The position numbers were made by a program, and so were the translations under genes. From contig JAGTJX010000004.1 of the NCBI GenBank assembly GCA_023657465.1, positions 18,053 to 50,052 on the forward strand: DNA of 32,000 bases. The letters run 5' to 3'. The notes under the pieces were generated by a model that did no database searches, was not told where the DNA came from, and worked only from the letters and a program-made list of their open reading frames with translations. Shown piece after piece: positions 15,844 to 32,000 of the stretch; the stretch's first letter is position 1, and each line of letters begins with the position of its first letter. The stretch comes from Lysobacteraceae bacterium (GTDB lineage: Bacteria > Bdellovibrionota > UBA1018 > JAGTJX01).

Positions 15844-15845
15844 GA

Positions 15846-18616: not shown

Positions 18617-19335
18617 GGCGATGCTAACTTCCGTGATTGAACATATTTTTGTCTGTCGACAAATTTCTTTAATCCTATATTACTTGGATTAAACTCAAGG
18701 GCTTGGCCCCATGCCTTGATTGCTAAGTCTTGATAGCCTAACTTCTGAAGCACAGTCCCTCGCATTTCATAAAGTTTAGGATTGGTAGGATATTGTCTGA
18801 TCATTGGATCTACTTCAAGAAGCGCTGCTTCGAATCTACCCATGTTGTAGAGCTGTTTTACTTTATCAATCTTAGCAAGATAGCTACCATCAGAATCTGG
18901 TGTTTCATCTTGAGTAGGAGCAAGACCTAAGCCATTTTCAATTTCACGTCTTTTCCATTCATCGTTTGGATTACCTTTTGGAAAAGTTTGTTCAATCTCT
19001 CTATCTGCGATGGTTGGCTTTCTCTCATCATAGGTATAGTCGTACTGAGTATTCGATGCGACATTTCTTCCGCTGCTATTCATTTCATTAAAATCAGGAT
19101 TCATTGGCATAATAACATCGGTGATGTCTTTATCGGATTCTGGGATTTCGACTTCAATTGATCGATCGCCTTTTTTAGTTCTGAAAATCATTGGAGATTT
19201 AGATGCTTTAGCTGCGTTGTAGAAATCACCAAACGGGTTTTCAATAGGCTGAGCGCTTTCTTCTTTAGTTGAGAAAGCAGAACATCCAATCATGGTTGTC
19301 ATGAGCAATATGCTAAATATATTTTTCAAACTCAT
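18613..19335 (-). CDS. TPR-repeat lipoprotein
   Basis: Lipobox-like LMTTMIGC follows a signal sequence. C-terminal TPR-like repeats are present (GRFEAALLEVDPMIRQYPTNPKLYEMRGTVLQKLGYQDLAIKAWGQALEFNPSN). An ATGA overlap links it to the downstream gene. Confidence 0.7.
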   Translation of the reverse strand: MSLKNIFSILLMTTMIGCSAFSTKEESAQPIENPFGDFYNAAKASKSPMIFRTKKGDRSIEVEIPESDKDITDVIMPMNPDFNEMNSSGRNVASNTQYDYTYDERKPTIADREIEQTFPKGNPNDEWKRREIENGLGLAPTQDETPDSDGSYLAKIDKVKQLYNMGRFEAALLEVDPMIRQYPTNPKLYEMRGTVLQKLGYQDLAIKAWGQALEFNPSNIGLKKFVDRQKYVQSRKLASP

Positions 19336-19353
19336 TTAACCCTAGCCTCCGAT

Positions 19354-20517
19354 TCAAAACATTGCGCTTACGCCAAGACCGATTTCGATACCCGAAACAC
19401 TTCCTGCGCTTGTTCCACTCAGGAACGCTGTAGCAGGTGGTCTGTAGCCTAAGCTCACTGGAACTGCCCAGTGCTTACCAAAACGCCATTCATAGCCAAT
19501 GCGACCAATTGCACCTAAGAATCCAGATGCATAAGTGCCGCCAGCTGCGATAAAAAGACTGTTTCTAGCCTTGTTATAGCTTTCAATTTCTCCCCAGAGA
19601 TTCCACGCATGAACGAAAAGGAGTGTGAGGTTGAAGCCAGAGTAGAGATTGACTGTACCTGCAGTAGGAGTCACACCCATTAGCGTGTTAACGTCCATCA
19701 TGTAGTTCATTTCAAAACCGACTTCCTTCTTGCGATTGTCGTAACGTTCTACCATTCTAAATGCGAATCCAAGAACGCTTGAATAAGTTCCTACGTTTGC
19801 TTGATAGAAGTAATAGAGAGTTGGGCGATACATCACAGTAGGCGCGAATTCGATTTGATCCGTTTTAGGATTGATCTGATTGAAATCAACTCCACGACGG
19901 AATGCAGTGGCACGGGAAGTTTCAGAGTTATAACTCTTAGACCATGCAACAGTGCCTGTTTCGGCGTCTACTATATAGAAAGAAATGAGCATTCCAGAGG
20001 GTTGATAAGAAAATGCAATGTCCATGAAGTTTTCAATTCCAGACATTTTTGCAATTCTCGCTAATTGTACAGAGTTTCCATCAGTATTACTGATCACAAC
20101 ATTATCACCAAAAATATTTGCACTTTTTGCCTTACAAGGAAGACATTGAATCATTCTGGTTTTTGAGTTTCTGACAATTTTTTCACTGGTGACTAATTCT
20201 AAGTGCTGTCTGAATGACGGCGGTACGTTCTCACTGACTCCGATGTTTCGGATAGTGAGATTCTTCAGTCCTGAGACTTGTCCGTTTTTTACGTCGTACT
20301 CGAAGTCTGCAATCGTCTCTTCTAAGACTTGGTAGAAACTTCTAAATTTTTTGTCTTTATCTTTTTCCAAACCTAGCTTCGAACCAGTGGTTTCTGGAGC
20401 AGTGTCTTTTTGTAAACTCACGTTAGGCTCCGTCTCGTCAGATTTTGGTGCTACCTGTGCGTAGAGATATCCTGAAGTGATTAAGGCGATAAGCAAAATC
20501 AATAGATGCGAGCGCAC
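19354..20517 (-). CDS. Outer-membrane beta-barrel protein candidate (first gene of the operon)
   Basis: GTG start is preceded by AAGGAG. Signal peptide is MRSHLLILLIALITSGYLYAQ. The C-terminal half shows alternating hydrophobic and aromatic residues. The protein ends in Phe (GLGVSAMF), as is typical of OMPs. Confidence 0.55.
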   Translation of the reverse strand: MRSHLLILLIALITSGYLYAQVAPKSDETEPNVSLQKDTAPETTGSKLGLEKDKDKKFRSFYQVLEETIADFEYDVKNGQVSGLKNLTIRNIGVSENVPPSFRQHLELVTSEKIVRNSKTRMIQCLPCKAKSANIFGDNVVISNTDGNSVQLARIAKMSGIENFMDIAFSYQPSGMLISFYIVDAETGTVAWSKSYNSETSRATAFRRGVDFNQINPKTDQIEFAPTVMYRPTLYYFYQANVGTYSSVLGFAFRMVERYDNRKKEVGFEMNYMMDVNTLMGVTPTAGTVNLYSGFNLTLLFVHAWNLWGEIESYNKARNSLFIAAGGTYASGFLGAIGRIGYEWRFGKHWAVPVSLGYRPPATAFLSGTSAGSVSGIEIGLGVSAMF

Positions 20518-20844
20518 AAAGATTGTGCTCCTTCCTCAGATATCTCTTCGGACACAGGAGCTTGTGCTTAAGGACAAAGTAATTAATCTTGGGATTTAGT
20601 TAGTATTAGGTTGAAAATCGACATTTTTTTGTCAGTTCAGTGTGATTTACGTTTCTATTAAAAGTTAGAAGGAACAAGCGATGATCTGTATTCCTTAATA
20701 GAAAACGGCCTCAAAAATTGGAACGTTATTTAATAGAGATAGAAGGAGCCTGAATTTCTAGGCTCATTTTGAGAGTAGTGACTATATTTTACTCAAATAC
20801 ACATAATGGCAAAATCTACATCCCGGAAATAAGTAAATTCTAAG

Positions 20845-21042
20845 GTGAATTGTTTGAAAGATACGATTGTTAAGATGTTTCGTTCTTCATTCAAAAAGGT
20901 CGATAAAAAGTATATGGGAGTTCATTTGGTCATTCGCAATTTTCTTTATTGGATAACAGGTAATTCAGATAAACGTTTTTATGATATCTTTAATACAAAC
21001 AAGATAAAATTCAAATCTATAGATTCTGAAGAAAGCTTATGA
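20845..21042 (+). CDS. Hypothetical small protein (AT-rich ORF)
   Basis: 65 codons with a GTG start. An ATGA overlap with the next ORF is the only support. No homology was recognised. Confidence 0.3.
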   Translation: MNCLKDTIVKMFRSSFKKVDKKYMGVHLVIRNFLYWITGNSDKRFYDIFNTNKIKFKSIDSEESL

Positions 21043-21281
21043 TTTTTATAAGCCAACAAAAATTCACTACATTAACCAATGCAATGCTCCTTGTATTTTG
21101 TATTAGTTTTACTGGGATATTCGTACCCATAATTTCTTATTTCATGCAAAAAAAATGGTTTCCCTCAAAATACTCAAATTTGAATGCAGGTCTTCGAACA
21201 GAAGCAATACTAGTAGAATCCACAAGTAATAAGCGAGCAGTTGCAAGCCAGGTGAAACAACCTAAAAAAGTCCGGCGTTAA
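21039..21281 (+). CDS. Hypothetical membrane-anchored protein, possibly frameshifted at an A6 tract
   Basis: One predicted TM segment (AMLLVFCISFTGIFVPIISYF). After the A6 run at 21265-21270 the -1 frame stays open to 21463. Confidence 0.35.
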   Translation: MIFISQQKFTTLTNAMLLVFCISFTGIFVPIISYFMQKKWFPSKYSNLNAGLRTEAILVESTSNKRAVASQVKQPKKVRR

Positions 21282-21467
21282 GTCGGCCGATAATCAATAA
21301 GAATATTGCTACATCTCCAGCTAAGGAAGATTCCAAAGCTGAAAACCTTGCCGAAGCAGAAGCTCAAATAGCAGAAATCAAAACCGATCCTGAGTTTGAG
21401 CAGCTGTTTGGAGGCAATAGTGATTGGTTTTACAGAAGCTTTAGTTTTTGGAAAAATACTTGATGCA

Positions 21468-21511
21468 TTATTTGCAATTAATATTTGTTGGGTTATTTGC
21501 AATTAATATTT
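21468..21511. repeat. Tandem direct repeat, 2 copies of TTATTTGCAATTAATATTT with 25-bp period
   Basis: Copies at 21468-21486 and 21493-21511 are identical over 19 bp. Confidence 0.9.
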
Positions 21512-21671
21512 TTATCAAAATGAAATTCTGTAACTAGATTTTGTTCTTTTGATGCTACCTCAGCTAACCAACTCATCGTCTGGCACGCTTTGAAGAAGTG
21601 TCTCAATGGCATCCGCCTTTTCCTGGGTCACAAGAAAAAGCTTTCTCTTAGTTTCACTTTTAATCGCAACC

Positions 21672-21942
21672 TCAATAAGGCGCGTTTTCACGACTACCGA
21701 CATAAGTTACCTCCACTATTTTAACTTCGTTATTCACTACTTCCCAAACAGCAACATAGCTATAATTCAAATGGCAGTGATGAGTTCCATCAGTAAGTTT
21801 TGGATAGTTAGGTCAATTCACAGCGAACTGGACCGTTTGCCATGATATTGGCGATCAGGATCTGAAGTAATTCCCGAACATTTTTGGGCAGTTTACTTGG
21901 ACCTTTTACAGCCTTTTTCTTGGTTTTAACTGTCCAGGTCAA
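21672..21942 (-). pseudogene. Decayed RelE/ParE-superfamily-like toxin gene (1-nt frameshift plus in-frame TGA)
   Basis: Two frames read TWTVKTKKKAVKGPSKLPKNVRELLQILIANIMANGPVR and then N*PNYPKLTDGTHHCHLNYSYVAVWEVVNNEVKIVEVTYVGSRENAPY. The span is 271 nt, which is not a multiple of 3. A TGA sits where Trp is expected. Family assignment is by eye. Confidence 0.5.
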
Positions 21943-21961
21943 CTTTATTTCTAGTAAAAAA

Positions 21962-22141
21962 CTAAGCTCTCTTTTTACCAGGAGGGGAAGCCAATATTTT
22001 TTTAGCTTCCTCTAAATCCACCAGCTGATCAGTAACGTAGCGATGAATCACTGAGCCCACTAAGGTTTGGTAGGGAAGTCCATGCTTGAGCGCTAGCTTC
22101 TGTAACTTGAGCAAGTCCTCTTCTGGCAAACGAATGTTCAT
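21962..22141 (-). CDS. Ribbon-helix-helix (CopG/BrnA-like) antitoxin, 59 aa
   Basis: This ORF is below the track threshold. It reads MNIRLPEEDLLKLQKLALKHGLPYQTLVGSVIHRYVTDQLVDLEEAKKILASPPGKKRA. The LPxxxL...G.PYQTL pattern is typical of RHH antitoxins. It lies directly upstream of the toxin remnant. Confidence 0.6.
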   Translation of the reverse strand: MNIRLPEEDLLKLQKLALKHGLPYQTLVGSVIHRYVTDQLVDLEEAKKILASPPGKKRA

Positions 22142-22342
22142 ACGTTCAGATTTTGAGCTCTTAGAAGACCGAACTATTAGATTTGCTCGTTAAATCGAAG
22201 AGTTTTGATCCGAGCATTGCTTGGAAAACATTGGATGAATGAGAGCCGTACATATTTCGCTAAAAGCGAAGGATAGGCCATTCTCATTTAGTGAAACTGA
22301 CTCTTATTTCGTTTTTAGCGAAACATAGTGAAAAGGAAGTGT

Positions 22343-23044
22343 ATGAATAGAAATTTTTTATTGGTTTTAATGAGCATCACAGCATCTGCCTTCGCTCAAG
22401 AGCCATTCAATGCTTTATCTAGTTATAATAACGAGACTCATCCCATTTTACTTACAATTGAATTGCAAGAGACTAAGTCTTGGAAAGAAACAAACTCAAC
22501 AACTATAGCAAATATTTATGCTGATGAATCTGAGGAAGAGGTGGCACATAAATTACTTTTTCATAAGAAACATAATTTAATTGAAAATAAACTTTCTAAG
22601 TATCCTGTTTATGAAAGTATTAAGTCCATAATGGTGAATGCTAGAGAAGAAATTTATAGAACAATGCCTCAATCAATCACGAGAAAGACAATTTCAGAAC
22701 ATGGAACTGAATACCCAGTAATTATTGCTGATTTCAACCTTTTAGAAAATAAAGTGAGACTTTATTTATCAAGCAGCTCTAACTACAACGTAGAATTTGA
22801 TAGAATGTTACAAATTAGAAGAGATCGAATGAATGTTCTTGCTGGAACTAACTTCAGAATGGCACCTCCCACTCCAGGCGTTCCTCCGATTGAAAAAATT
22901 AATTTAAACGAAACACTAACTACTGAAGATAAAACTAAAATCACTAAACAATTAATAGATGCTATTCATTCTGCTTTTTCAATTACTATCAATACTTTTG
23001 AGTTTAATGAAAAATTGAGAACTACCATTGATTTGTTTAGTTAA
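22343..23044 (+). CDS. Secreted hypothetical protein
   Basis: I moved the start to ATG 22343, which follows AGGAAG. Signal peptide is MNRNFLLVLMSITASAFAQE. No homology was recognised. Confidence 0.6.
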   Translation: MNRNFLLVLMSITASAFAQEPFNALSSYNNETHPILLTIELQETKSWKETNSTTIANIYADESEEEVAHKLLFHKKHNLIENKLSKYPVYESIKSIMVNAREEIYRTMPQSITRKTISEHGTEYPVIIADFNLLENKVRLYLSSSSNYNVEFDRMLQIRRDRMNVLAGTNFRMAPPTPGVPPIEKINLNETLTTEDKTKITKQLIDAIHSAFSITINTFEFNEKLRTTIDLFS

Positions 23045-23266
23045 AAAATACTTAACCCTGATCACTAGCTCGCTTGATGCGTACTAAAGTAAAAGATTAA
23101 AATCACAAAAACGGGCCAAACAGAGCAGAGTGAGCGGGAAACAACGAAGTTGTTTCGTGCGATGCTCCAAATCTTGAGAGCTCCAGGTTTAAGCTGTACC
23201 CCTTCTAACCAAGAAGCACTGCAGCTACAGAACCCCTTCTGAAATAGCATTGACAGATGAACATTA

Positions 23267-23295
23267 GATTGTTACACAGCGATTAGATTTTAAAT
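23267..23295 (+). repeat. 29-bp conserved upstream element, copy 1 (GATTGTTACACAGCGATTAGATTTTAAAT)
   Basis: Identical to 23642-23670. It contains a possible TTGTTA -35 and an A/T-rich -10. It lies about 31 nt upstream of ATG 23326. Confidence 0.85.
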
Positions 23296-23325
23296 ATTAA
23301 ACAGATAACTGAAGGGGAAAACTCA

Positions 23326-23616
23326 ATGAAAAATATATTTTTTGGAATGCTCGCTCTCGCTAGTTCAACTCAAGCGTTCGCCGCTTGGCCTGAAACACAG
23401 TTGTTTTGTAAAAACGGAAAACTCTACGGAATCATCTATAACAATGATCCATTTATTGTTACGGAGTTTACCAATCAGAAAGAGTGTTCAAACAGCTTCG
23501 TGAATAGAAAATATTGCAAGGAAGCCAACATGCACGTCGTCTATGTCAAAGATGATCAAGCAGTAGAACACTATGCTACTCAAGACGAATGTCGCGAGGC
23601 TATTGGTAAAAATTAA
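23326..23616 (+). CDS. Small secreted Cys-containing protein
   Basis: Signal peptide is MKNIFFGMLALASSTQAFA. The mature part of 77 aa has 4 Cys. No homology was recognised. Confidence 0.6.
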   Translation: MKNIFFGMLALASSTQAFAAWPETQLFCKNGKLYGIIYNNDPFIVTEFTNQKECSNSFVNRKYCKEANMHVVYVKDDQAVEHYATQDECREAIGKN

Positions 23617-23641
23617 CCTATAGAGATATAAAAGAACGTAG

Positions 23642-23670
23642 GATTGTTACACAGCGATTAGATTTTAAAT
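23642..23670 (+). repeat. 29-bp conserved upstream element, copy 2
   Basis: Identical to 23267-23295. It lies about 24 nt upstream of ATG 23694. Confidence 0.85.
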
Positions 23671-23693
23671 TATTGGTTTTAGGAGTACTGAAT

Positions 23694-24098
23694 ATGAAAA
23701 ATATCCTGTCGATAATTTTATTTTTATCAAGCCTGAGTGCTTTTGCCTATGAGTACCCTGCTGCAAAAAGAGATCGTCCAATTATCGAAAAAGCCTTGAA
23801 TATGTACGACATTTCATTTGATGAACTCAAGTTCCCTTTAAAACGTCAGATTTTTACAGGAACCATGACTGCTTTAACTAAAATTCCAGAACTTGTTTCA
23901 TTTTTGACTGGTCTAGGCGATCAGCATTTCGTCACTCTCCATGTTATTGAAGGAAAGTTTAATCATGAGCAAAAGACATGCATCGCATATGTGCAGTTGA
24001 ACTTTGATAATACTCAAGAAGTTGAAATTGCAAATTGTGGCACTCATTACACTGACTTTTTCAGTTCCAAAAGATTAGTTCCACTCACTAGACCCTGA
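23694..24098 (+). CDS. Small secreted hypothetical protein
   Basis: I moved the start to ATG 23694, which follows AGGAG. Signal peptide is MKNILSIILFLSSLSAFA. Confidence 0.6.
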   Translation: MKNILSIILFLSSLSAFAYEYPAAKRDRPIIEKALNMYDISFDELKFPLKRQIFTGTMTALTKIPELVSFLTGLGDQHFVTLHVIEGKFNHEQKTCIAYVQLNFDNTQEVEIANCGTHYTDFFSSKRLVPLTRP

Positions 24099-24101
24099 TT
24101 A

Positions 24102-24188
24102 CATGAGCGCTGTTTGCTCATTAATTTAAAGAACTTAACGTGCACCCGAAGGCCTAATTGACATTCGGGCGTTTCCATTTCTATGAAA
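24102..24188 (+). repeat. Linker left module, copy 1 (hairpin 1 ATGAGC-N7-GCTCAT, hairpin 2 CCCGAA-N13-TTCGGG, then CGTTTCCATTTCTATGAAA)
   Basis: The same two-hairpin unit recurs at 27381-27422, 28801-28880 and 29297-29375. Hairpin 2 followed by a T-rich tail resembles an intrinsic terminator for the upstream plus-strand gene. Confidence 0.8.
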
Positions 24189-24191
24189 TAA

Positions 24192-24644
24192 CGCTCCCCA
24201 CTCTCCGCCCCAGTTGATGCATCTGACTGGTATATCAGTGATCGATTATCAGAAAAGCTAAAGAGTTATCCAATGGCGGATTTAGTTCCCTATCGAAACT
24301 ATTATCTAAAGCATATTTGGAATCGAGCAAAGTTCTATAACGGTCTCTCGAAGAAAGTGTTGGGAAGAGAAGTAAAGCATACGCTACTGATTCATCACAA
24401 TCTACTTAACGCTCTTTTCTTAGATGATTTATTGGCTATGTTTAAGAAGAATGGGTGGAAAATCATCTCTGCTGAAAGTGCATTTTCTGATCCTATCTTT
24501 AAAACTGAAGCAAAAATAGCCCCAGCTGGAGAAAGCATTTTATGGGCACTTGCTAAGGAAACGGGTAAATTTGAATCAATATTACGTTATCCGGCAGAGG
24601 ATAGTGACTATGAAAAACCAGAAATGGATCGACTCGGACTTTAA
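24192..24644 (+). pseudogene. 5'-truncated polysaccharide-deacetylase-like gene fragment
   Basis: The frame is open from 24192, directly after the linker, and reads RSPLSAPVDASDWYISDRLSEKLKSYPMADLVPY...HTLLIHHNLLNALFLDDLLAMFKKNGWKIISAE...PAGESILWALAKE. This resembles only the C-terminal part of a deacetylase-family protein. The N-terminal catalytic part is missing. Family assignment is by eye. Confidence 0.45.
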
Positions 24645-24704
24645 GAAATTCGACTAAATTTGCGGAACCTTCCTATAGCATGGGTCTCTATTTCAAGTGT
24701 CCTC

Positions 24705-25007
24705 TCAAGCAACTTTCAGCCTGTAATCAGGATTGATCTTTGAATAAAGCCTGATGAGCTTATCAGTGCTAAATCGGGTAATCCGATGATTGAATATCCT
24801 GCTCATATCAGCCTTGGTAATGCCTAAAAATTTTGCCATCGCAACGGCACTTAATTCATGTTGCTGAGAGTACTTAAGAAGGTCCTGGCAAATCTGGAAT
24901 CGAAATCTAGCTAGCTCATCGGCGTCAGGCGATAGCATGAGAAAGCCAGGTTTCTTGCTAAGTTTTGCTCTGATTTTTGATAATTCCTTTTTACTTGGAA
25001 AACCCAT
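24705..25007 (-). CDS. XRE-family helix-turn-helix antitoxin (HigA-like)
   Basis: HTH region is LSAVAMAKFLGITKADMSRIFNHRITRFSTDKLIRLY. It starts 3 nt after the upstream small toxin-like ORF. Its SD (GAGGAAG) lies inside that ORF's 3' end. Confidence 0.75.
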   Translation of the reverse strand: MGFPSKKELSKIRAKLSKKPGFLMLSPDADELARFRFQICQDLLKYSQQHELSAVAMAKFLGITKADMSRIFNHRITRFSTDKLIRLYSKINPDYRLKVA

Positions 25008-25010
25008 TCC

Positions 25011-25193
25011 TTACTTCCTCCTATATGCGTTGACGACTCCAATATAAAGCTCATCACCTTCTAATAACCAAACTAACTTGTAGTTTTTTCCTTCAAGTCT
25101 CAGTTGGTCGGTAACAAAATACTCATAAGGTTCGTCGCTGTCTTGAACGGGATAAGTACCTCCGTCTAGTAATTTTACAAGCTTTACGACCAA
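25011..25193 (-). CDS. Putative toxin partner (toxin-first, HigB-like arrangement); start uncertain
   Basis: The C-terminal pattern NYKLVWLLEGDELYIGVVNAYRRK resembles small RelE-fold toxins. Only a TTG start is available, because an in-frame TAA lies 8 codons upstream. The gene may be N-terminally truncated. Confidence 0.45.
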   Translation of the reverse strand: MVVKLVKLLDGGTYPVQDSDEPYEYFVTDQLRLEGKNYKLVWLLEGDELYIGVVNAYRRK

Positions 25194-25322
25194 CTCATCA
25201 TTAATTACATTTTTATGTTAAACCTCATAGTGAGCGTCAATAACGACCTTATGGATCGGTCGAGAGTTTACGGTAATATTGATTGCGTATTCACGGCGAT
25301 CCAAACATCCTAAAGTAGCATA

Positions 25323-25344
25323 ATGTTGTCATATTTGACAACAT
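25323..25344. promoter_or_regulatory. Perfect palindrome ATGTTGTCA-tatt-TGACAACAT, candidate operator of the adjacent TA module
   Basis: 9-bp arms with a 4-bp spacer, about 130 nt upstream of the toxin ORF on the minus strand. It overlaps a TTGTCA -35-like hexamer. Confidence 0.5.
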
Positions 25345-25380
25345 CTATTTCTAGTTGGCTTTACGTGGTTTACCGGAAAT

Positions 25381-25441
25381 AACTTCGTCACTTCAACTAG
25401 CCCGCTTAATGGATAGAATGTCCATTTAATCCGGTAAATAG
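25381..25441 (+). repeat. Linker fragment (AACTTCGTCA...CGCTTAATGG...TCCATTTAATCCGGTAAATAG)
   Basis: It aligns to the ATCAACTAAA-CGCTTAATG-...-CCGGTAAAAG part of the linkers at 26548-26603 and 28961-29012. It stops abruptly at the 3' end of the Phd-domain gene. Confidence 0.7.
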
Positions 25442-25442
25442 C

Positions 25443-25772
25443 TCATGAGACTGGAGTGATCTCTGCGATGGCACGACCATGCTTTAGTAATCGCACAGTA
25501 TTTCCTCTCAGTACTTGATCGAGGATCTCTCCTGTTTTGTTCTTCAATTCAGTTGCCGAATAGCTCAGTATATTCTTTTTTAATTCAGCAATGACCCAGG
25601 ATTCGAGTTTAAGTAGCGACTGTACGGGTAGGGCGCTCTCAGACATGAGTCCGTCGTTTAAAATAAAATGCATCGCGACTGAAAACTCAATCCCAGGAAA
25701 ATAACCCTCGGAAATTTTCATTTTTAGATTTTCAATCAGATCAGGATTTAATATCTGCGACAATGTATTCAT
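25443..25772 (-). CDS. Protein with a C-terminal Phd/YefM-like antitoxin domain, encoded downstream of Fic
   Basis: I placed the start at ATG 25772, which follows AAGGAG and lies 11 nt after the Fic stop. The C-terminus SYSATELKNKTGEILDQVLRGNTVRLLKHGRAIAEITPVS matches the Phd/YefM N-domain pattern. The N-terminal 65 aa are unrecognised. Confidence 0.55.
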   Translation of the reverse strand: MNTLSQILNPDLIENLKMKISEGYFPGIEFSVAMHFILNDGLMSESALPVQSLLKLESWVIAELKKNILSYSATELKNKTGEILDQVLRGNTVRLLKHGRAIAEITPVS

Positions 25773-25783
25773 AAGTTCACTCC

Positions 25784-26413
25784 TTATTCTTTTGAAATGC
25801 GTTTTTTGAAAAACCGCTCTAATTGTGAGAGGTCGCCCGAGTTGGCAGCTTCTAGTGCTCTCAGATGCTCGACTTTGTCCTTCAGTTTGAAAGTGAACAA
25901 GCTTTTGAATTTCCAATGCAGCCAGTACGCCATCAAAACCCTGCCTATTCGCCCATTGCCGTCTTGGAAAGGATGAATGCTCTGAAAAGAATAATAAAGC
26001 TCTGCTATTTGATTTCGGTCATGAGGATCACGATTGTAAAGCTTGATCCATTCCTGCATTGCAGTCTGAACTTTTGATGGACTGACATAATCAAACCTGC
26101 TCCCGTCTGAGCGAAAGGTATAGTTTTCGATCGATTTCCATTTGCCATGATCTCCAGAGAATCCAGTAAAGAGTTTCTGATGAAAACTCTGAATCAAGTC
26201 TATCGAAACATAAGGGCTTTTTTGTAATTCATGAATCAGCCATTCGACTGCAGATCTATAGTTGAGGAGTTCTCTGGCTTCAGAGATGGGGTGACCAAGT
26301 ACAGTCCTGCCAGCCAAGATCTCGCGAGACTCCTGTTCGGTCAATGTTGAGCCTTCGACGAGAGTGGACCCGATCAATAAGGCATCTTCAAGATCTTCAA
26401 GCTTCCACTTCAT
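25784..26413 (-). CDS. Fic-domain protein (AMPylase/Doc-superfamily)
   Basis: The canonical Fic motif HPFQDGNGRIGR is present. I prefer the start at ATG 26413 (MKWKLEDLED). The TTG at 26449 is the track alternative and lies inside the promoter palindrome. Confidence 0.85.
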   Translation of the reverse strand: MKWKLEDLEDALLIGSTLVEGSTLTEQESREILAGRTVLGHPISEARELLNYRSAVEWLIHELQKSPYVSIDLIQSFHQKLFTGFSGDHGKWKSIENYTFRSDGSRFDYVSPSKVQTAMQEWIKLYNRDPHDRNQIAELYYSFQSIHPFQDGNGRIGRVLMAYWLHWKFKSLFTFKLKDKVEHLRALEAANSGDLSQLERFFKKRISKE

Positions 26414-26453
26414 ATTGACTATATTAGCTAAAAAAGCTAATATAGTCAATATG
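26411..26453. promoter_or_regulatory. Perfect 19-bp inverted repeat (5-bp spacer) forming a symmetric TTGACT-N17-TAATAT promoter on both strands
   Basis: CATATTGACTATATTAGCT-aaaaa-AGCTAATATAGTCAATATG. On the minus strand the -10 ends 7 nt before the Fic ATG, and the CAT of the left arm is that ATG. Confidence 0.7.
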
Positions 26454-26460
26454 GTGTGAA

Positions 26461-26759
26461 TACTTCGTCAGAGTGCCTTTAATGGGATCAGAACACTTGC
26501 CTGTTTTTTTTACAATCGTAGGACTTACACCGACTGGTTTGCACCATCCGCCAAATCAACTAAATCGCTTAATGAGAATAATGGCAAGTATTTCCAGTAA
26601 AAGTGGGTGAGCGAGAATGAGCGTTATTGAATAGAAGGCTTGTTACAATACCCTACGGCGCCGCGCTTGACTGAGTATGTTAGAGTCGCTATTTAACTTT
26701 TGTTTACTAAATGAAAGAAAATGGATTCAAAACACGAATCATATCTACTGGTCTAAAAC
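26461..26759 (+). repeat. Linker copy A (right module with X2 motif, promoter and leader hairpin)
   Basis: Roughly 80 percent identical by eye to 28957-29167 over about 210 bp. It precedes the secreted-protein gene at 26798. Confidence 0.8.
26667..26695 (+). promoter_or_regulatory. Conserved linker promoter TTGACT-N17-TATTTA (copy A)
   Basis: Hexamers lie at 26667-26672 and 26690-26695. The same hexamers and spacing occur in copies B and C. The leader hairpin GATTC-N7-GAATC lies at 26724-26740. Confidence 0.6.
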
Positions 26760-26797
26760 CCTTGAACTTTAGTCGAGAATGAAATACTAGACTCAGC

Positions 26798-27355
26798 ATG
26801 AAAATATTCATTTTTTGTTTTTTTATACCTACTTTTGCTCTTAATTCTTTTGCAGAAGATCGAATTAAATTTGAAAAAAAAGGTGAAACTTACGATTTTC
26901 AAGTGAGTGATATCAATGGTCCTAATGGATCAACGGCACAAGAGGCCTTCCTCTATTACATATTTGCAGGCGCAAAAAAAAATAACTCGGATCAGAACGA
27001 CTGGAATGCATTCTACCGTATTCCTGGTTATAGAAAACAAACTATCAGTAAACTGCTTAAAGTAAATCTAGTTGGCGATTTACCAAAATATATTTGGCAC
27101 TTTTCACTTCCAACAGATGACCTGATTTCACACAAAAGCACGGAGAATAGCGAAGAGATACAAATCAAAGGTGAAGTAGCTGAGGTACTCTATGACGGTA
27201 TTCAAAATATACTAGCATACAACGATAGTCTTAGCTCTTGTGATAAGGAAAAAAGAGTTTTTCTTGGTAAAAAAATTGCTTGCTCACCAACTAAAATTAG
27301 AATCCAAAGTGAAGAATACGATTCAGCTCAATGTAAACTCACTTTAGATAAATAG
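26798..27355 (+). CDS. Secreted hypothetical protein
   Basis: Signal peptide is MKIFIFCFFIPTFALNSFAED. Length is 185 aa. No homology was recognised. Confidence 0.6.
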   Translation: MKIFIFCFFIPTFALNSFAEDRIKFEKKGETYDFQVSDINGPNGSTAQEAFLYYIFAGAKKNNSDQNDWNAFYRIPGYRKQTISKLLKVNLVGDLPKYIWHFSLPTDDLISHKSTENSEEIQIKGEVAEVLYDGIQNILAYNDSLSSCDKEKRVFLGKKIACSPTKIRIQSEEYDSAQCKLTLDK

Positions 27356-27387
27356 TTACCTGCTCAACAATTAGAAATGTCATGAGC

Positions 27388-27412
27388 GCCCGAAGATAAA
27401 TCACTTTCGGGC
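27388..27412 (+). terminator. Linker hairpin 2 acting as an intrinsic terminator (GCCCGAA-N11-TTCGGGC, then GTTTTCATTT)
   Basis: 7-bp GC-rich stem with a T-rich tail, 33 nt after the stop of 26798..27355. Confidence 0.65.
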
Positions 27413-27439
27413 GTTTTCATTTGAACTAAAATCAAATTA

Positions 27440-27808
27440 TTACGCAGCCCAATCCAAATCAATCCCTGAGAACTTGGCAAGTGGGATAAGTCCATTTCGA
27501 CTATTACCAGCTTCCTTCAAATCTATAAGACCAATATCGGCAAGGAGTTTGACATCGGTATGAACATTCTTGAAATCCCGTCCAAGTAGTTTCGCTAAAT
27601 CATAAATGGACTTGGGGCTTTGTTGAATGACCGCACGAAGAATCTCCATGCGAACTTTTGAAAAGACACGAGCTACCGCTTCTAGACTCGTAAAAATGAT
27701 TTCATCATCTTTTTGAATACCTTTTCTCTTACCCTCGATAGCCTCTGCCCATTCGCGTTTAGTGTTTTCTATTGTTTTAACAATAATTTTTGCATGTTTC
27801 TTTTTCAT
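27440..27808 (-). CDS. Winged-HTH antitoxin-like regulator (TumA-like partner)
   Basis: I placed the start at ATG 27808, which forms an ATGA overlap with the upstream gene's stop. HTH-like region is SIYDLAKLLGRDFKNVHTDVKLLADIGLI. Confidence 0.55.
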   Translation of the reverse strand: MKKKHAKIIVKTIENTKREWAEAIEGKRKGIQKDDEIIFTSLEAVARVFSKVRMEILRAVIQQSPKSIYDLAKLLGRDFKNVHTDVKLLADIGLIDLKEAGNSRNGLIPLAKFSGIDLDWAA

Positions 27809-28125
27809 ACTAAGAATCCCTCCATTCGAACCAAACTCCAAAAATCTTCAACTAACTGACTTACATCTTTAAATTCATACGCTTCTTCTCGCCCATTCCG
27901 GTGCAAATGGGGCCCCTTTGGCTTGTGGTTATCAAATCCAACGATCACTTCGCCTGACTCCCTCCAAACCAAGAAGAGAGAGAACTTTCGACCCTCTGGA
28001 TAATGAGGGCTTTCTGGAACATCAAATATTTTCAGCTCAGCAATGGCAACTTCTTCGCTAGCTCTATGAATGACTTGAACTTTAGAATGAAAAAGCAACG
28101 TCGCTGCTCGACGGGGAGAAGCCAT
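27805..28125 (-). CDS. TumE-like (DUF6516-type) toxin-antitoxin system protein
   Basis: The motif pattern HYPEGRKFSLFLV...GFDNHKPKGPHLHRNG...YEF resembles the TumE/DUF6516 family. Assignment is by eye. Confidence 0.55.
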   Translation of the reverse strand: MASPRRAATLLFHSKVQVIHRASEEVAIAELKIFDVPESPHYPEGRKFSLFLVWRESGEVIVGFDNHKPKGPHLHRNGREEAYEFKDVSQLVEDFWSLVRMEGFLV

Positions 28126-28163
28126 ATATGTTTATATTACCATATATAGAGCTTTGGTCAAGG

Positions 28164-28385
28164 ATTTCTACGAAAGAACATTCCAAATTCTACGCCCCAA
28201 CCTCTACTAAGTAATTTCCATTTAATCCGGTAGGCTTGTTTTCTAGAATCGCGAAATCAACTAAAACGCTTAATGAAAATATTGGCAAGTATGAACCCGC
28301 CTCACTTGACTTAGTCTACTAATGTTGATATTTAACTCGTGTTTACAAAATCATAGAAAATCTATTCAGAACCTGAATCAAAACT
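28164..28385 (+). repeat. Linker copy B (starts at ATTTCTACGAAAGAA; has X1 motif, promoter and leader hairpin; lacks the X2 segment)
   Basis: It aligns to 28871-29160 of copy C, with a deletion of about 75 bp after GGCAAGTAT. Confidence 0.8.
28306..28334 (+). promoter_or_regulatory. Conserved linker promoter TTGACT-N17-TATTTA (copy B)
   Basis: Hexamers lie at 28306-28311 and 28329-28334. The spacer sequence differs from copies A and C but its length is conserved. The leader hairpin ATTCAG-N3-CTGAAT lies at 28364-28378. Confidence 0.6.
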
Positions 28386-28418
28386 ATTTAGTCAAATGAC
28401 GTGAAGGATAGTGATGTT

Positions 28419-28796
28419 ATGAAAAAAATTATATTATGTGTGTTGTTGTTGATTTCGAATGCTGCATTTGCTCAAATAGAATTTGTCGAAACATATACCA
28501 TCGTTAGCCAGAAACCAGATGACATCTTCAGTACCATTATTAATCTTACTGATAATACAGGAAAAGTATTTTGTATAACTTGTCAGAATCCATTTGATGC
28601 AAGCTTTAAACGATCTGTCGCGTTTTGGGCTTATGGAAATGGTAGCGATAAATGGATTGCAACAACAAGTGAAACATTTAATTCAGACACTTGTCAAAAA
28701 CAAATATACTCATTGCTCGAACGTTTAGATGGCACGAATTCAATTGAGATTACTGTGAAAAATAAAATCTTAGTGAAGATGGATCTTAAGCACTGA
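28419..28796 (+). CDS. Small secreted hypothetical protein
   Basis: I moved the start to ATG 28419. Signal peptide is MKKIILCVLLLISNAAFAQ. The mature part of about 106 aa has 3 Cys. Confidence 0.6.
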   Translation: MKKIILCVLLLISNAAFAQIEFVETYTIVSQKPDDIFSTIINLTDNTGKVFCITCQNPFDASFKRSVAFWAYGNGSDKWIATTSETFNSDTCQKQIYSLLERLDGTNSIEITVKNKILVKMDLKH

Positions 28797-28840
28797 CTTC
28801 ATGAGCATCACATGCTCATCCTAGTAAAAGATTCTCGAAC

Positions 28841-28865
28841 GCCCGAAGGTAAATCGCTTTCGGGC
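28841..28865 (+). terminator. Linker hairpin 2 / intrinsic terminator (GCCCGAAG-N8-CTTTCGGGC, then GTTTTCATTT)
   Basis: 8/9-bp GC-rich stem followed by a T-rich tail, 45 nt after the stop of 28419..28796. Confidence 0.7.
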
Positions 28866-29075
28866 GTTTTCATTTCTATGAAAGAATTTTCGAAATCCTG
28901 CGCTCGAACCTCTACTCAGTAATTTCCATTTAATCCGGTAGACTCGATTCCAAAAACCGCCAGATCAACTAAAGAGCTAAATGGGAATATTGGCAAGTAT
29001 TTCCGGTAAAAGAAGGGTGCTAAGAGTGAGCGTTATTGAATAGAATTTCAGCCATATTGCCATACGGATCCTACC

Positions 29076-29104
29076 TTGACTTAGCCTATTAGAGTCGCTA
29101 TTTA
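29076..29104 (+). promoter_or_regulatory. Conserved linker promoter TTGACT-N17-TATTTA (copy C)
   Basis: Hexamers lie at 29076-29081 and 29099-29104. The leader hairpin GATTCA-N5-TGAATC lies at 29133-29149. Confidence 0.6.
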
Positions 29105-29205
29105 ACTCTTGTTTACAAAATCAAAGAAACTCGATTCAGACCATGAATCTAAATCATGGGTCTAAAGACAAAACTGCTGCTTCCATTTCAAAGGTCGTTA
29201 TTTTG

Positions 29206-29292
29206 ATGAAAAGACAAAATCCATACTATTTTATAATAGCTGGAGTTGGCTCGAGTGATCCCGAAATAACTGTTTCGTGCATATTGTTCTGA
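29206..29292 (+). CDS. 28-codon ORF (MKRQNPYYFIIAGVGSSDPEITVSCILF) at the position where other cassettes carry their gene
   Basis: It lies about 100 nt after promoter C, the same distance as in cassette A, and is followed by another two-hairpin module. The frame also opens at ATG 29143 (49 codons). The SD is weak. Confidence 0.2.
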   Translation: MKRQNPYYFIIAGVGSSDPEITVSCILF

Positions 29293-29296
29293 TCAC

Positions 29297-29440
29297 ACGA
29301 GCATCACCTGCTCATTAAAACAAAGGAATTATGAACGCCTAAAAAACTAAATTTCTTTCAGGCGTTTCCATTTCTATGATTGAACGTTCCCAATTCCATC
29401 CCTACTTCTACCGGAAGTATTGTCCATTTAATCGAGCAGT
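29297..29440 (+). repeat. Linker left module, copy 4 (degenerate hairpin 1, hairpin 2 GCCTAAA...TTTCAGGC, CGTTTCCATTTCTATGA, X1-like TCCATTTAATCG)
   Basis: It aligns to 28797-28940. It lacks the TTGACT promoter module and runs directly into the SD of 29455. Confidence 0.7.
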
Positions 29441-29454
29441 AAGGAAGAGAAACT

Positions 29455-29940
29455 ATGAAAATTTTAAGTCTTGGCATCTTAATAATAGGGTCAAATGCAT
29501 TTGCTTTAGATTTTGATGACTATAAACATTGGTACAATAACGGAAATAAAACAAAATTTACTAAAAATGCTCCTGATGAAACCGACCGTCTAAGTCGCTC
29601 AACTCCTCAATGCACCTTCGCTGTGCATTCTCCACCACGCTCAGAAAATGCTTCCGCAATTGCTATTGAGCCAACGAAAAATGGAGATATACTTGTTTTT
29701 GGATCTGTAACAACCATTGGAGACTCTAGAGCTCGTAAGATGCTTGCTAAATTAACTTCAAATTCTGAGTCGGACTCAGACTTGATTTTGGGTATTCGAA
29801 AAAACAATCTAGATGTTTATGAAGATGCTGCAGCTCCTGTAAGAATACTAATTCGTTCTGGTTATCGCGATCTCTACTTCAAAATCGAAACAGTTTCTGT
29901 GAGTGAAAAATTAAAGAATTTGCATACGGAAGATGTTTGA
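29455..29940 (+). CDS. Secreted hypothetical protein
   Basis: AGGAAG SD is present. Signal peptide is MKILSLGILIIGSNAFA. Length is 161 aa. No homology was recognised. Confidence 0.6.
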   Translation: MKILSLGILIIGSNAFALDFDDYKHWYNNGNKTKFTKNAPDETDRLSRSTPQCTFAVHSPPRSENASAIAIEPTKNGDILVFGSVTTIGDSRARKMLAKLTSNSESDSDLILGIRKNNLDVYEDAAAPVRILIRSGYRDLYFKIETVSVSEKLKNLHTEDV

Positions 29941-30014
29941 ACGCTTATAGAAAATATTAGTCCCTAAATTTGTAGCCTTTTGATGCTCTAAAAAGCAAAG
30001 GACTAAAATTCAAC

Positions 30015-30050
30015 AAAACCCTTGTTGGCATGATCTGCTAGCAGGGGTTT
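30015..30050. terminator. Bidirectional hairpin terminator between convergent genes
   Basis: AAAACCCTTGTTGG...CTGCTAGCAGGGGTTTT forms an imperfect long stem flanked by A and T runs. It lies between the 29940 (+) and 30058 (-) gene ends. Confidence 0.55.
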
Positions 30051-30057
30051 TATGTTT

Positions 30058-30366
30058 TTACGAAGCCTGTTTCTTTTCGCTTTCAATGGATATTTTGAGA
30101 CCGACTGCTTTGAGTAGTGATCTTAGAGTCGAGAGTTTTGGGTTTCCATCTTTTGAAAGCGTCTTATAGAGACTCTCTCTACCTAATGAAGCGTGTTCTG
30201 CAATCTCTGAAACTCCGTGAGCTACAGCTACGTCTCGTAGAGCTAAAAGAAACACATCTTCACTATCATCTTCATCTAGATGAGCATTGAGATATGCAGC
30301 TGCTTCCTTTGGATCGTGCAGTGATTGAATGAGTCCATCTTCATATTTTTTCGTTCGTTTTGGCAT
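30058..30366 (-). CDS. Addiction-module antidote protein (HigA-family HTH antitoxin)
   Basis: I placed the start at ATG 30366, which follows AGGAG. LHDPKEAAAYLNAHLDEDDSEDVFLLALRDVAVAHGVSEIAEHASLGRESLYKTLSKDGNPKLSTLRSLLKAVGL is the typical antidote-family sequence pattern. Confidence 0.8.
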   Translation of the reverse strand: MPKRTKKYEDGLIQSLHDPKEAAAYLNAHLDEDDSEDVFLLALRDVAVAHGVSEIAEHASLGRESLYKTLSKDGNPKLSTLRSLLKAVGLKISIESEKKQAS

Positions 30367-30380
30367 CTTTGTCTCCTTTG

Positions 30381-30641
30381 CTACACAGACTGATAATCTT
30401 TCCAATACTCTTTGGCCTTTTGAATATCGCGCTCCTGAGAGCCTTTATCTCCACCGACGAGGAGAACCACGATTTTTGCTCCATCCTCACCAAAATACAC
30501 TCGGTAGCCTGGGCCAAAATCAATTTTGAGTTCCCACACACCCTGGCTGAGATTTCTTGTATTACCCAGGTTTCCGGTACGCACACGGTTCAGGCGTTTC
30601 CGCACAATTGCTCGTGCTGAAATATCCTTCAGGCCATTCAA
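30381..30641 (-). CDS. Addiction-module killer protein (RelE/HigB-like); canonical start codon missing at the expected N-terminus
   Basis: RLNRVRTGNLGNTRNLSQGVWELKIDFGPGYRVYFGEDGAKIVVLLVGGDKGSQERDIQKAKEYW is the typical killer-family pattern. Family-like residues (ELLNYVTEDGRCPFEDW) continue in frame up to 30713 with no ATG, GTG or TTG. The only available start is TTG 30641. Confidence 0.7.
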   Translation of the reverse strand: MNGLKDISARAIVRKRLNRVRTGNLGNTRNLSQGVWELKIDFGPGYRVYFGEDGAKIVVLLVGGDKGSQERDIQKAKEYWKDYQSV

Positions 30642-30766
30642 CCAATCTTCAAATGGACACCGTCCATCTTCAGTGACGTAGTTTAGTAGCTCACGAGGAG
30701 TTGGTTCCTTATCTCAGCCTTTATTGTATCCTAAAAGATACATATATTGCAAGGTGTATTTTAGAC

Positions 30767-30937
30767 TCATTTATGGCGCCTCTCACCTAAAAGCTGCCTA
30801 TTCCACTTACCTAGGCTCATGATGTGCTGTTTTGAAGCGCCGTGCATGAGCTGCTCTGTGACATCGATAATCGTGCCGCTCCAACCCAATCCCAAGCCAA
30901 GCCAAATGAGTCGGTTGATCAAAGTTGAAATGTTCAT
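30767..30937 (-). CDS. 56-codon ORF with one hydrophobic segment (MNISTLINRLIWLGLGLGWSGTIIDV...)
   Basis: This ORF is below the track threshold. AAAGGA SD lies 7 nt upstream. It is locally GC-richer than the surrounding sequence. No homology was recognised. It competes with the track ORF 30807..30995 in another frame. Confidence 0.25.
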   Translation of the reverse strand: MNISTLINRLIWLGLGLGWSGTIIDVTEQLMHGASKQHIMSLGKWNRQLLGERRHK

Positions 30938-31200
30938 AGGTTAGTCCTTTCGTTGATACTATATTTTGAATAGTGATAGAAATCCCCCAAGACACGCCAC
31001 CTGGCCTTAGGGGATTGATTAGATTTTAATTTTCAATGAACCTACCAGTAAGAGTTTATCCGCTCTTGCAAATCGTCGATCCCAGAGCGCATATATGTAC
31101 TCTCGAACAACAACCAGTGGTTCGTTCAAAATAGCTCGTCGCCCACCATTCAAGTAAAAAAGCGAACTCGCGTCAGGAATGTTGGCCTTACCATTAGAAA

Positions 31201-31264
31201 GAAGGGCAATTATTTCCGGTAAAAGAGGGTGCCTTAGTACGAGCGTTATTGAATAGAAATTTCA
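31201..31264 (+). repeat. Isolated linker fragment (X2 segment only: GGCAATTATTTCCGGTAAAAGAGGGTG...GAGCGTTATTGAATAGAAATTTCA)
   Basis: It aligns to 28990-29049 of copy C and 26583-26637 of copy A. No promoter module follows. Confidence 0.75.
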
Positions 31265-31352
31265 AGAATTATGAAGGGAAGCGTACAAGAAAAAGGCCGT
31301 TGAATTTCTAAGCTCTCAACCATCGTGAGGCTGTACCATGGGCTCAATAACA

Positions 31353-32000
31353 TTAACTCAATTTGTCTGACTCACTACGTTCTATCATTTGGTCAACTGC
31401 AGCTTCTAACACTTTTATTCGCTCTAAATTTCCTTCTGCCTCAGCACTAGAAAACATTTTAAAATTGGCGTTGGGTGCGAGCGCTGAATGGGTTCCAGCC
31501 AAATATTCATTGATAAAAATTTTCAATGCAGGTTGAGAGTTTTTATCATTGACCCCGAGCCAATTGAGGCGACGCTCAACAAAGAGGGTAGTAAAGCCAT
31601 TCACCATGGCCCAGCAGTGCATCGATTTGTGATAAGGGTCTCCTGGACCCACAATCCCCTCTTTTTGTAATAGTTCGATCACTTTTTTGAGTAATGCGAA
31701 AGTCAATCCTGCTGCTTTTTCGAGCTCAGGATATTCCGGACTTGGACAAACCGTAGAGCTCAACATGAGCTTGAAATGTTGAGGATGAGAAAGTCCCATT
31801 TTAAAGTAAGATTGAGCACATCCATGTAGCAGTTCTTTAGGTTTTTTTCTGTTTTTGATAAATGCCTCTAGCATGTATTTCATTTTTATTTCAAAGCCTT
31901 GCTGGCTAATCGCCGCGAGTAACTCATTGCGATTCTTGAAGTGACGATAAGGAGCTGCTTGGCTGACTCCTGCTCGAATAGCAAGTGTGTTGAGGGAGAG
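31353..32000 (-). CDS. TetR/AcrR-family transcriptional regulator (5' end outside the window)
   Basis: The frame is open from 31883 to the window edge and reads LSLNTLAIRAGVSQAAPYRHFKNRNELLAAI, a TetR HTH. The helical C-terminal ligand domain follows. Confidence 0.85.
   Translation of the reverse strand, partial: LSLNTLAIRAGVSQAAPYRHFKNRNELLAAISQQGFEIKMKYMLEAFIKNRKKPKELLHGCAQSYFKMGLSHPQHFKLMLSSTVCPSPEYPELEKAAGLTFALLKKVIELLQKEGIVGPGDPYHKSMHCWAMVNGFTTLFVERRLNWLGVNDKNSQPALKIFINEYLAGTHSALAPNANFKMFSSAEAEGNLERIKVLEAAVDQMIERSESDKLS

Follow-up and report, generated by a model that had tools for sequence, protein, structure and literature searches.

Gene content and limits of the island

The window analysed here is a 32-kb stretch of chromosomal DNA from an uncultured member of the Bdellovibrionota (contig JAGTJX010000004.1), and it contains a 10.7-kb accessory island in which small, mutually unrelated genes for secreted proteins on the plus strand and toxin-antitoxin (TA) pairs on the minus strand are joined by copies of one intergenic linker. 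The linker is a mosaic of separable modules, the island is absent from this locus in relatives and the secreted cargo consists of orphans. A cassette-like accessory array, with conserved junction DNA around unrelated cargo, is supported. Statements on the absence of the linker cover this window.

Core genes occupy the first 20 kb, among them SMC, trmFO, a XerC-like recombinase and a MotA/MotB/FliG-like operon. In the closest relative (L009, neighbouring gene 85% identical) DNA synteny extends over window positions 10206-20580 and stops there, and in a second relative (L010, neighbouring gene 76% identical) it breaks at the same place. Both lack the island at this locus and have a different gene beside the operon. 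The island has a GC content of 0.34-0.40, compared to 0.41-0.47 in the flanking core. On its right side the TetR gene is intact from 31353 onward and continues past the end of the window. Searches of the window for tRNA and tmRNA genes were negative, and a search of it against Rfam returned no family at gathering thresholds or at permissive E-values.

The source metagenome-assembled genome (MAG), whose NCBI protein entries MCM0606974-MCM0606990 are identical to proteins of the window, carries the label 'Xanthomonadaceae bacterium'. Its gene content and all close homologues are those of Bdellovibrionota, and the taxonomy or binning of the MAG is therefore probably wrong. The homologues of the 387-aa gene at 19354-20517 come without exception from Bdellovibrionota, Oligoflexia or Bacteriovoracia MAGs.

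Six plus-strand open reading frames (ORFs) of 96 to 238 aa encode proteins with N-terminal signal peptides that end in (A/S)FA (Table 1). In an all-against-all blastp comparison their likeness was confined to these signal peptides, in agreement with the initial annotation, made from the sequence alone, which had seen no mutual similarity in the mature parts. None of the six has a Pfam match (E ≤ 0.01), and each remains a singleton when about 15 billion proteins are clustered at 90% identity. S185 was its own sole match among 5.8 billion proteins, and S238 has one homologue, of 72% identity, among 1.84 billion representative proteins. The latter is encoded at another locus (L077), where it adjoins sucAB-lpd in a different core context; DNA homology covers the ORF only and the linker is absent. 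An AF2 model of S238 plus this homologue reached a pLDDT of 50, too low to be of use. The suggestion made earlier that the secreted proteins are immunity proteins is thus far unsupported. The label of a truncated deacetylase, proposed earlier for the 123-aa ORF at 24273-24644, finds no support in Pfam, NCBIfam or PDB sequences.

A mosaic linker with a putative promoter/terminator frame

Self-BLAST recovers all linker copies listed in the initial annotation and upholds its view that the intergenic DNA of the island is built from diverged copies of one linker. Their identity, estimated by eye at around 80%, is measured at 70-92% over 39-228 bp, far above chance: 28941-29166 matches 26532-26757 (76.8% over 228 bp), 28872-29000 matches 28164-28292 (82%), 29075-29153 matches 28305-28383 (83.5%), 31205-31264 matches 28992-29050 (87%), 28837-28875 matches 27384-27422 (92%) and 29296-29433 matches 28800-28935 (70%). 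The copy placed at 26461-26759 is real, but its similarity to the others begins only at about 26521, and a copy of the junction right end near the left edge of the island (20691-20740) had been overlooked. A local tandem duplication that included the flanking ORFs is unlikely to account for these copies, since the ORFs share nothing beyond the signal peptides. Outside the island no linker copy was found: the 20 kb of core DNA contain none, nor do L009 and L010.

Alignment of all copies to one complete copy (28794-29168), with copies located by nhmmer models named T, L, R and P, resolved the linker into three modules, T, M and P, which together give a full junction of about 370 bp. T (∼78 bp) opens with C-TGA, in three units the stop codon of the upstream ORF, and continues with a hairpin (CATGAGC...GCTCAT) and an intrinsic terminator. 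M (178 bp) is composed of L, R1 and R2, and its terminal inverted repeats (ATTTCTATGAAAKAAC... and ...GTTATTGAATAGAAAT; repeat family I7) are 90% complementary. P (∼120 bp) contains TTGACT, 17 nt, TATTTA and a small conserved hairpin that showed no covariation; it ends about 35 nt before each start codon and is a putative promoter. A frame of this kind, with promoter-like leader and terminator common to unrelated ORFs, is unusual.

The copies differ in which modules they retain. Copy A consists of T and the start of L, B of R and P, B2 of part of T, C1 of L, R1 and P, D of T and L, and E of R2 only, with A2 as a fragment of R; all breakpoints of the mosaic lie at module edges. Copy F, about 110 bp inside the synteny break, is matched by the nhmmer R model with E = 0.1 and scores 32.7 bits with a position weight matrix (PWM) of the core site described below. 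It matches a related copy in metagenome contig L018 at 38/43 positions, a value reached by 0/2000 shuffles.

Other roles for R were considered. RNAalifold gave no convincing structure on either strand, which makes a structured RNA improbable; that R encodes a small peptide was ruled out, as the reading frame is not kept between copies. On the minus strand of R1, TTGCCA-17-TTTAGT resembles a promoter, but it was not picked up by the promoter scan, and the important A at position 2 is missing from its -10 element.

A second promoter-like element, the 37-mer P2 (GAACATTAGATTGTTACACAGCGATTAGATTTTAAAT), lies at 23259-23295 (plus strand) and 23634-23670, the two copies being 92% identical (repeat family D7), with a partial copy at 31017-31036. 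The two full copies stand just upstream of the secreted ORFs S96 and S134; since these are unrelated, P2 is another case of the same upstream element before different genes.

Table 1. Features of the accessory island, in order of position
Feature	Position	Strand	Evidence and remarks
Accessory island (10.7 kb)	20581-31352	.	Synteny end and composition
F, junction right end R2	20691-20743	+	Holds core site GAACGTTATTTAATAGAGAT; marks island left edge
Decayed CopG-type TA remnant	21560-22141	-	59-aa CopG-like ORF 21962-22141 plus 44- and 47-aa fragments
S238	22343-23044	+	Signal peptide; 233 aa from annotated start
S96	23326-23616	+	Signal peptide; no Pfam; singleton cluster
S134	23694-24098	+	Signal peptide; no Pfam; singleton cluster
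T(A), TGA stop, hairpin CATGAGC..GCTCAT, terminator hairpin	24096-24176	+	nhmmer T model 73.9 bits
L(A), junction left arm	24177-24226	+	Core site inverted, ATTTCTATGAAATAACGCTC; nhmmer L model E = 1.5e-8; PWM 35.3 bits on minus strand
123-aa ORF	24273-24644	+	No signal peptide; singleton cluster; no family or PDB match
HTH_37/XRE antitoxin (24705-25007) and 60-aa partner (25011-25193)	24705-25193	-	Pfam HTH_37 E = 4.9e-8; NCBI name 'XRE family'
A2, junction fragment, R1-like plus TCCATTTAATCCGGTA	25385-25439	+	Repeat family D6; nhmmer R E = 0.002, L E = 0.011
Fic toxin (25784-26413) and Phd-like (25443-25772 or -25916)	25443-26413	-	Pfam Fic E = 2.7e-18, PhdYeFM E = 1.6e-5; NCBI 'Fic family protein'
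R(B), junction right half	26521-26636	+	Ends in core site; nhmmer 110 bits; PWM 26.3 bits
P(B), TTGACT, 17 nt, TATTTA, then small hairpin	26642-26760	+	nhmmer 118 bits; alignment
S185	26798-27355	+	Signal peptide; no Pfam
T(B2), partial terminator module	27356-27422	+	nhmmer E = 1.6e-10; 92% to T(C) over 39 bp
TumE/TumA cassette, 725 bp	27439-28163	-	TumA 27440-27808, TumE 27805-28125; Pfam TumE and HVO_A0114
L(C1) and R1(C1)	28164-28292	+	82% identical to 28872-29000; R2 lost by ∼58-bp deletion
P(C1)	28294-28390	+	nhmmer 90.6 bits
S125	28419-28796	+	Signal peptide; no Pfam; singleton cluster
T(C), TGA stop, hairpin, intrinsic terminator	28794-28871	+	14-bp stem 28837-28869 (terminator scan); nhmmer 73 bits
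M(C), sole complete junction element	28872-29049	+	Core site inverted at left end, direct at right end
P(C)	29051-29168	+	nhmmer 118.8 bits
49-aa remnant ORF in cassette slot between P(C) and T(D)	29143-29292	+	TGA stop in register with T as in copies A and C
T(D) and L(D)	29290-29438	+	nhmmer T 71 bits, L 56 bits; junction element cut after TCCATTTAATCGAGCAG
S161	29455-29940	+	Signal peptide; no Pfam; singleton cluster
HI1420-type antidote (30058-30366) and Gp49/RelE-type toxin (30381-30641)	30058-30641	-	Pfam; NCBI names
R2(E), junction right end with core site	31192-31261	+	nhmmer 58.7 bits; PWM 31.2 bits; marks island right edge

A core site of about 22 bp

The best conserved piece of the linker is a site of about 22 bp, GAGCGTTATTGAATAGAAAT (consensus TTGGARCGTTATTNNATAGAAAT), of which copies B, C and E share an identical 18-mer with L018, and which forms both ends of M as inverted copies. 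With the PWM derived from the copies, eight sites are detected in the 32 kb, none of them outside the island, compared to 0.2 in shuffled sequence; for these eight the test is circular, and it is informative only in finding nothing else. Their orientations along the island read + - + - - + - +, and the alternation becomes strict when the lost R2 of copy C1 is included. This alternation is in part a consequence of the inverted ends of M. It follows from it that the gene modules, and likewise the interior of M, lie between inverted sites. The sites of F and E, which are 17/20 identical, have the same orientation, and the island is thus bracketed by direct repeats.

When the 18-mer was used to scan a genome collection that does not include the genome of the window, only chance matches were obtained, one of them in an unrelated Bdellovibrionales MAG. 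Scans of viral contigs with linker motifs likewise gave chance matches only, and blastn of the full linker against plasmid and phage records gave no match.

The TumE/TumA cassette and related junctions elsewhere

The TumE/TumA cassette (TumEA) is a discrete unit that recurs in other genomes and whose ends are edges of linker modules. It comes with a promoter and an operator of its own. TumA belongs to a 12-member cluster at 90% identity, and the pair is found in at least five other genomic contexts, including L066/L067, L068/L069, L070 and L071-L074, the last of these being a further context with a TumE at least 90% identical to that of the window. The cassette DNA is about 80% identical to that of L066/L067, and this match spans 27439-28163 exactly; those with L068/L069 and L070 are shorter, with their left end at 28072 or 28060 and their right limit at 27439. 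All DNA matches stop at this last position, which is that of the TumA stop codon beside the end of T, while 28163 is the base before L starts. Common to all contexts is the sequence TTCAARTGA directly after the TumA stop. A promoter scan places a promoter-like site of TumE (TTGACC-16-TAATAT) at 28161-28134, and 2-16 nt upstream of the promoter a core-type site, GTTMTTTCRTA, is present in the window and in L066 in the same relative orientation.

Related junction elements are present at two other metagenomic loci, L018 and L066. The former contains a 116-nt R module, 76-87% identical to the copies of the window and including the exact 18-mer of the core site, 28 nt from the start of a core gene; a minus-strand ORF and a fragment of an HI1420-like HTH gene follow. 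L066 is itself an array (MFS, LCM, a BrnT/CopG TA pair, a secreted DKNYY protein, TumEA and YCII), in which the genes are set apart by a repeated imperfect palindrome of about 150 nt. The left arm of this palindrome (M1) aligns to L(A) with a score of 35, compared to a mean of 12.9 for shuffled sequence (0/2000 shuffles as high). The module of MFS and LCM is bounded by inverted core-like sites, and L066 has four PWM matches where 0.6 are expected. In L075, a relative of L066, different small genes stand beside the same LysR gene.

The copy of M1 at 7237-7386 of L066 is 150 nt long, has the ends CGAAATAAC...GTTATTTCG and folds as single-stranded DNA (ssDNA) with z = -4.5. Repeated between the small cassettes of a metagenomic array, it is the most attC-like object that we encountered.

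Two of the other TumEA contexts have features of their own. In L068, TumE is cut by an insertion of the IS21 family (IstA/IstB, 74-2323), and 3.3 kb downstream of TumA, surrounded by small GNAT-type genes, there is a gene for a large serine recombinase (6477-8120). Its product is a candidate for the recombinase but has no established link to the junction site. In L071 (GCA_964364175.1, 9900-11080), a direct repeat of about 50 nt, CAGACRTCTGAATGGATTTTAYAAACAAAATGAATTCTAAAA, brackets the TumE/TumA cassette; the cassette is part of a small insert that separates DUF3108 from the lpx lipid A genes, and an HNH endonuclease gene adjoins it.

Comparison with known array classes

The earlier statement that the linker fits no recognised class is borne out for the classes examined here, with no attC motif or fold, no dif-like site and no Rfam family. 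Integrons are the obvious comparison, as orphan cassettes in sedentary chromosomal integrons are typically mixed with TA cassettes, and the island resembles these arrays and the clusters of attC sites lacking an integron-integrase (CALINs) in its head-to-tail short, unrelated and mostly orphan ORFs, its junction with inverted-repeat ends, its interspersed self-promoted TA cassettes, the stop codon supplied by the junction and its absence in relatives. The ends of M even carry ..AAC and GTT.. in attC-like order, and M1 of L066 folds as a long imperfect hairpin. It is nevertheless very improbable that we are dealing with a canonical cassette array or CALIN with divergent attC sites. A heuristic test for RYYYAAC...GTTRRRY pairs about 50-160 nt apart found none on either strand of 20500-31400, compared to about three in shuffled sequence. 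M(C) folds as ssDNA no better than shuffles (z = +0.6 and +1.0), and for the regions of A, A2 and Cx z ranges from -1.8 to +0.4. The 32-kb window contains no intI, attI or Pc, and its sole tyrosine recombinase is XerC/D-like, with a score of 276 bits against XerC but of only 122 bits against the integron-integrase model, the cut-off of which is 265. This gene, 9 kb away next to trmFO and syntenic in L009, is a housekeeping one. In contrast to an attC site, moreover, the junction of about 370 bp gives each cassette its own promoter-like leader and terminator, and the TA pairs stand at junction edges without a junction element of their own.

In the dif modules of Acinetobacter, modules bounded by pdif sites are carried on Rep_3 plasmids (PMC13141974, PMC6449649). 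The island shares with them short modules between inversely oriented copies of one short site whose orientation alternates, the nearly universal presence of TA modules, modules without an ORF, represented in the island by the interior of M, modules fused through the loss of a site, as in copy C1, and a recombinase that is not beside the array. It differs in being chromosomal, in belonging to a different phylum and in its shared promoter/terminator flanks, and the site is neither of the 11-6-11 XerC/XerD layout nor like the proteobacterial dif consensus. Matches to the dif inner core GATAA-N6-TTATGT were at chance level in number, none of them at a junction, and by eye the core site bears no resemblance to dif of B. 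bacteriovorus, TCTTCTGATAAGTTATATTATGTAACGG (PMC2731167). A dif resemblance in copy C (GGTGC...TTAT) was dropped, as it is not kept in other copies.

The initial annotation had also drawn a parallel to the recombinase-associated orphan immunity gene arrays (rAID) of Bacteroidales, which consist of small genes, some of them secreted, with conserved intergenic sequence. The parallel is one of general resemblance: no rAID-type tyrosine recombinase heads the array, in the island or in its flanks within the window, no secreted ORF matches an immunity family in Pfam (E ≤ 0.01), TA pairs are interspersed and the phylum is another one.

A last group comprises miniature inverted-repeat transposable elements (MITEs), modular repeats such as Correia, ERIC and BOX, and the 'putative mobile promoters'. 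M resembles them with its length of about 180 bp, its terminal inverted repeats and its truncated, modular copies, and the 'putative mobile promoters' provide a parallel for homologous upstream regions before non-homologous genes. In contrast to such repeats, the copies seen here occur exclusively within a variable island and at the borders of cargo units, T and P are conserved together with M, and target-site duplications are not evident; M(C) is flanked by no clear one, at most TTC.

Origin of the array

We tentatively favour the reading that the island is a chromosomal gene-accretion array, in which recombination was targeted to the 22-bp sites and the module edges by a recombinase encoded elsewhere. 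Its basic unit would be an expression module made of a P leader, one unrelated orphan secreted ORF and T with the TGA stop codon, and such modules would be joined by the 178-bp M with its inverted sites of about 22 bp at both ends. Core sites and module edges would be the points at which DNA is gained, lost or fused, a site-specific recombinase or transposase encoded elsewhere would act on the core sites, and self-promoted type II TA pairs of the minus strand, inserted at junctions, could stabilise the array. The logic resembles that of integron cassettes or Acinetobacter dif modules, with a site that differs. Gene-cassette accretion had been proposed in the initial annotation, and the conserved junctions, the unrelated cargo and the discrete TumEA unit speak for it, but apart from the syntenic housekeeping XerC-like gene no recombinase or transposase gene is encoded in the 32 kb.

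This missing recombinase is one of several points that weigh against such a system. The core site lacks the clear two-arm layout with a 6-8-bp spacer of tyrosine-recombinase sites. Only one M is complete, and the truncation of the others would also be in line with a decaying repeat family. P was not recognised by the consensus promoter scan. TumEA is the only TA pair that abuts a core site, and it is also found in contexts without this site, in L071 with a different direct repeat of about 50 nt. Furthermore, L018 shares R only, and a comparison of the whole elements by nhmmer, M of the window with M of L066, gave nothing significant, the L(A) arm being the only part that aligns.

In the main rival reading, the island is a mosaic of selfish or regulatory intergenic repeats and no dedicated cassette system exists. 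M would then be a MITE- or ERIC-like element, P and T would be mobile promoter and terminator modules, the linker would have spread locally within an AT-rich island of horizontal origin, by duplication, gene conversion and homologous recombination, and the TA pairs would have arrived separately. This alternative is a serious one, if somewhat less probable. The terminal inverted repeats of M and the hairpin-forming palindrome M1 of L066 are in line with it, as are a second large palindrome in the same genome (9831-10123), P2 before two other unrelated ORFs, the truncation of most copies at varied points, the lack of a recombinase nearby and the mobility of TumEA in contexts without the element. 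However, a MITE alone does not account for several observations: T and P are located beyond the inverted repeats, yet they are conserved along with M although the ORFs they surround are unrelated; in three units the conserved stretch begins at the stop codon, in the same register; and the ends of TumEA coincide to the base with module edges, with a similar site beside TumEA in L066. Nor does one expect of a spreading repeat that the core DNA of the window and of L009 and L010 is free of copies.

The remaining explanations, namely paralogues, a canonical integron as discussed above and an assembly artefact, are unlikely. A tandem family derived from one ancestral secreted-protein gene, with coding parts that diverged under diversifying selection between untranslated flanks that stayed similar and with TA pairs inserted later, would account for the head-to-tail units with common promoter and terminator flanks and for the shared type of signal peptide. 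It is an improbable scenario, as flanks of 75-92% identity enclose ORFs of 96 to 238 aa without detectable similarity and homology ends sharply at the ORF edges; the 72% identical homologue of S238 in L077, without linker, indicates that evolution of these ORFs is too slow for their similarity to have been lost. A chimeric metagenome assembly joined at repeats is hardly credible at all. It could be suspected from the conflict between the NCBI label and the Bdellovibrionota homologues, but the contig is 429 kb long with Bdellovibrionota-like flanks, the mislabel most likely reflects binning or taxonomy assignment, and an R copy was recovered independently in L018, a Bdellovibrionota-like contig. 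The linker copies differ by 8-30% and are therefore not collapsed identical repeats.

A stronger form of the accretion reading would be a gene-capture system of Bdellovibrionota that has not been described before, in which the site TTGGARCGTTATTNNATAGAAAT, as the inverted ends of an element of about 150-180 bp, is the target of a putative recombinase, ORFs are placed into a ready promoter/terminator frame and the resulting arrays of orphan secreted proteins, each expressed on its own, are stabilised by TA cassettes. On balance we consider this unlikely, yet its consequences would be considerable. In kind it would be comparable to integrons or dif modules, with a site and an expression logic that differ from theirs, and if the site is a real recombination target, it would add a third array-building architecture to integron attC cassettes and Xer-dependent dif modules. 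Each captured gene would be provided with a promoter and a terminator, and this in a phylum of predators that has received little study. Such a system would be relevant to the question of how orphan cassettes arise and come to be expressed, and it would point to a lineage-specific pool of secreted proteins with possible effects on prey or competitors. Even if M should turn out to be MITE-like, the island offers a clean example of homologous regulatory modules around non-homologous genes.

Toxin-antitoxin modules and further observations

The count of five minus-strand TA modules given earlier holds for four complete type II pairs identified by Pfam; the fifth is a decayed pair. Its CopG-like ORF matches Pfam CopG_antitoxin with E = 0.004, under the family cut-off. 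Two 103-aa paralogues with at least 90% identity, of which this 59-aa ORF is a shortened copy, are encoded in the MAG: KA715_13565, on the contig of the window, and KA715_06520, on a different contig. Since these full-length paralogues sit elsewhere in the MAG, more TA loci or arrays are probably present in this genome. The 60-aa partner of the HTH_37 antitoxin matches no family. In the Fic/Phd pair, the gene order is opposite to that usual for phd-doc, with the Fic gene in front of the Phd-like gene. A palindrome at 26399-26465 (inverted repeat I1) with 31-nt arms (84% complementary) overlaps a promoter-like site of the Fic gene and is probably the operator of this pair.

Outside the island, an imperfect but near-perfect palindrome of about 290 nt (9831-10123) lies between the convergent genes at 8119-9849 (plus strand) and trmFO at 10082-11434 (minus strand) and overlaps the 3' ends of both. 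Its sequence is unrelated to the linker and its ssDNA fold reaches -86.9 kcal/mol, compared to -36.2 for shuffles (z = -13). The palindrome may be MITE-like, or it may serve as a terminator in both directions.

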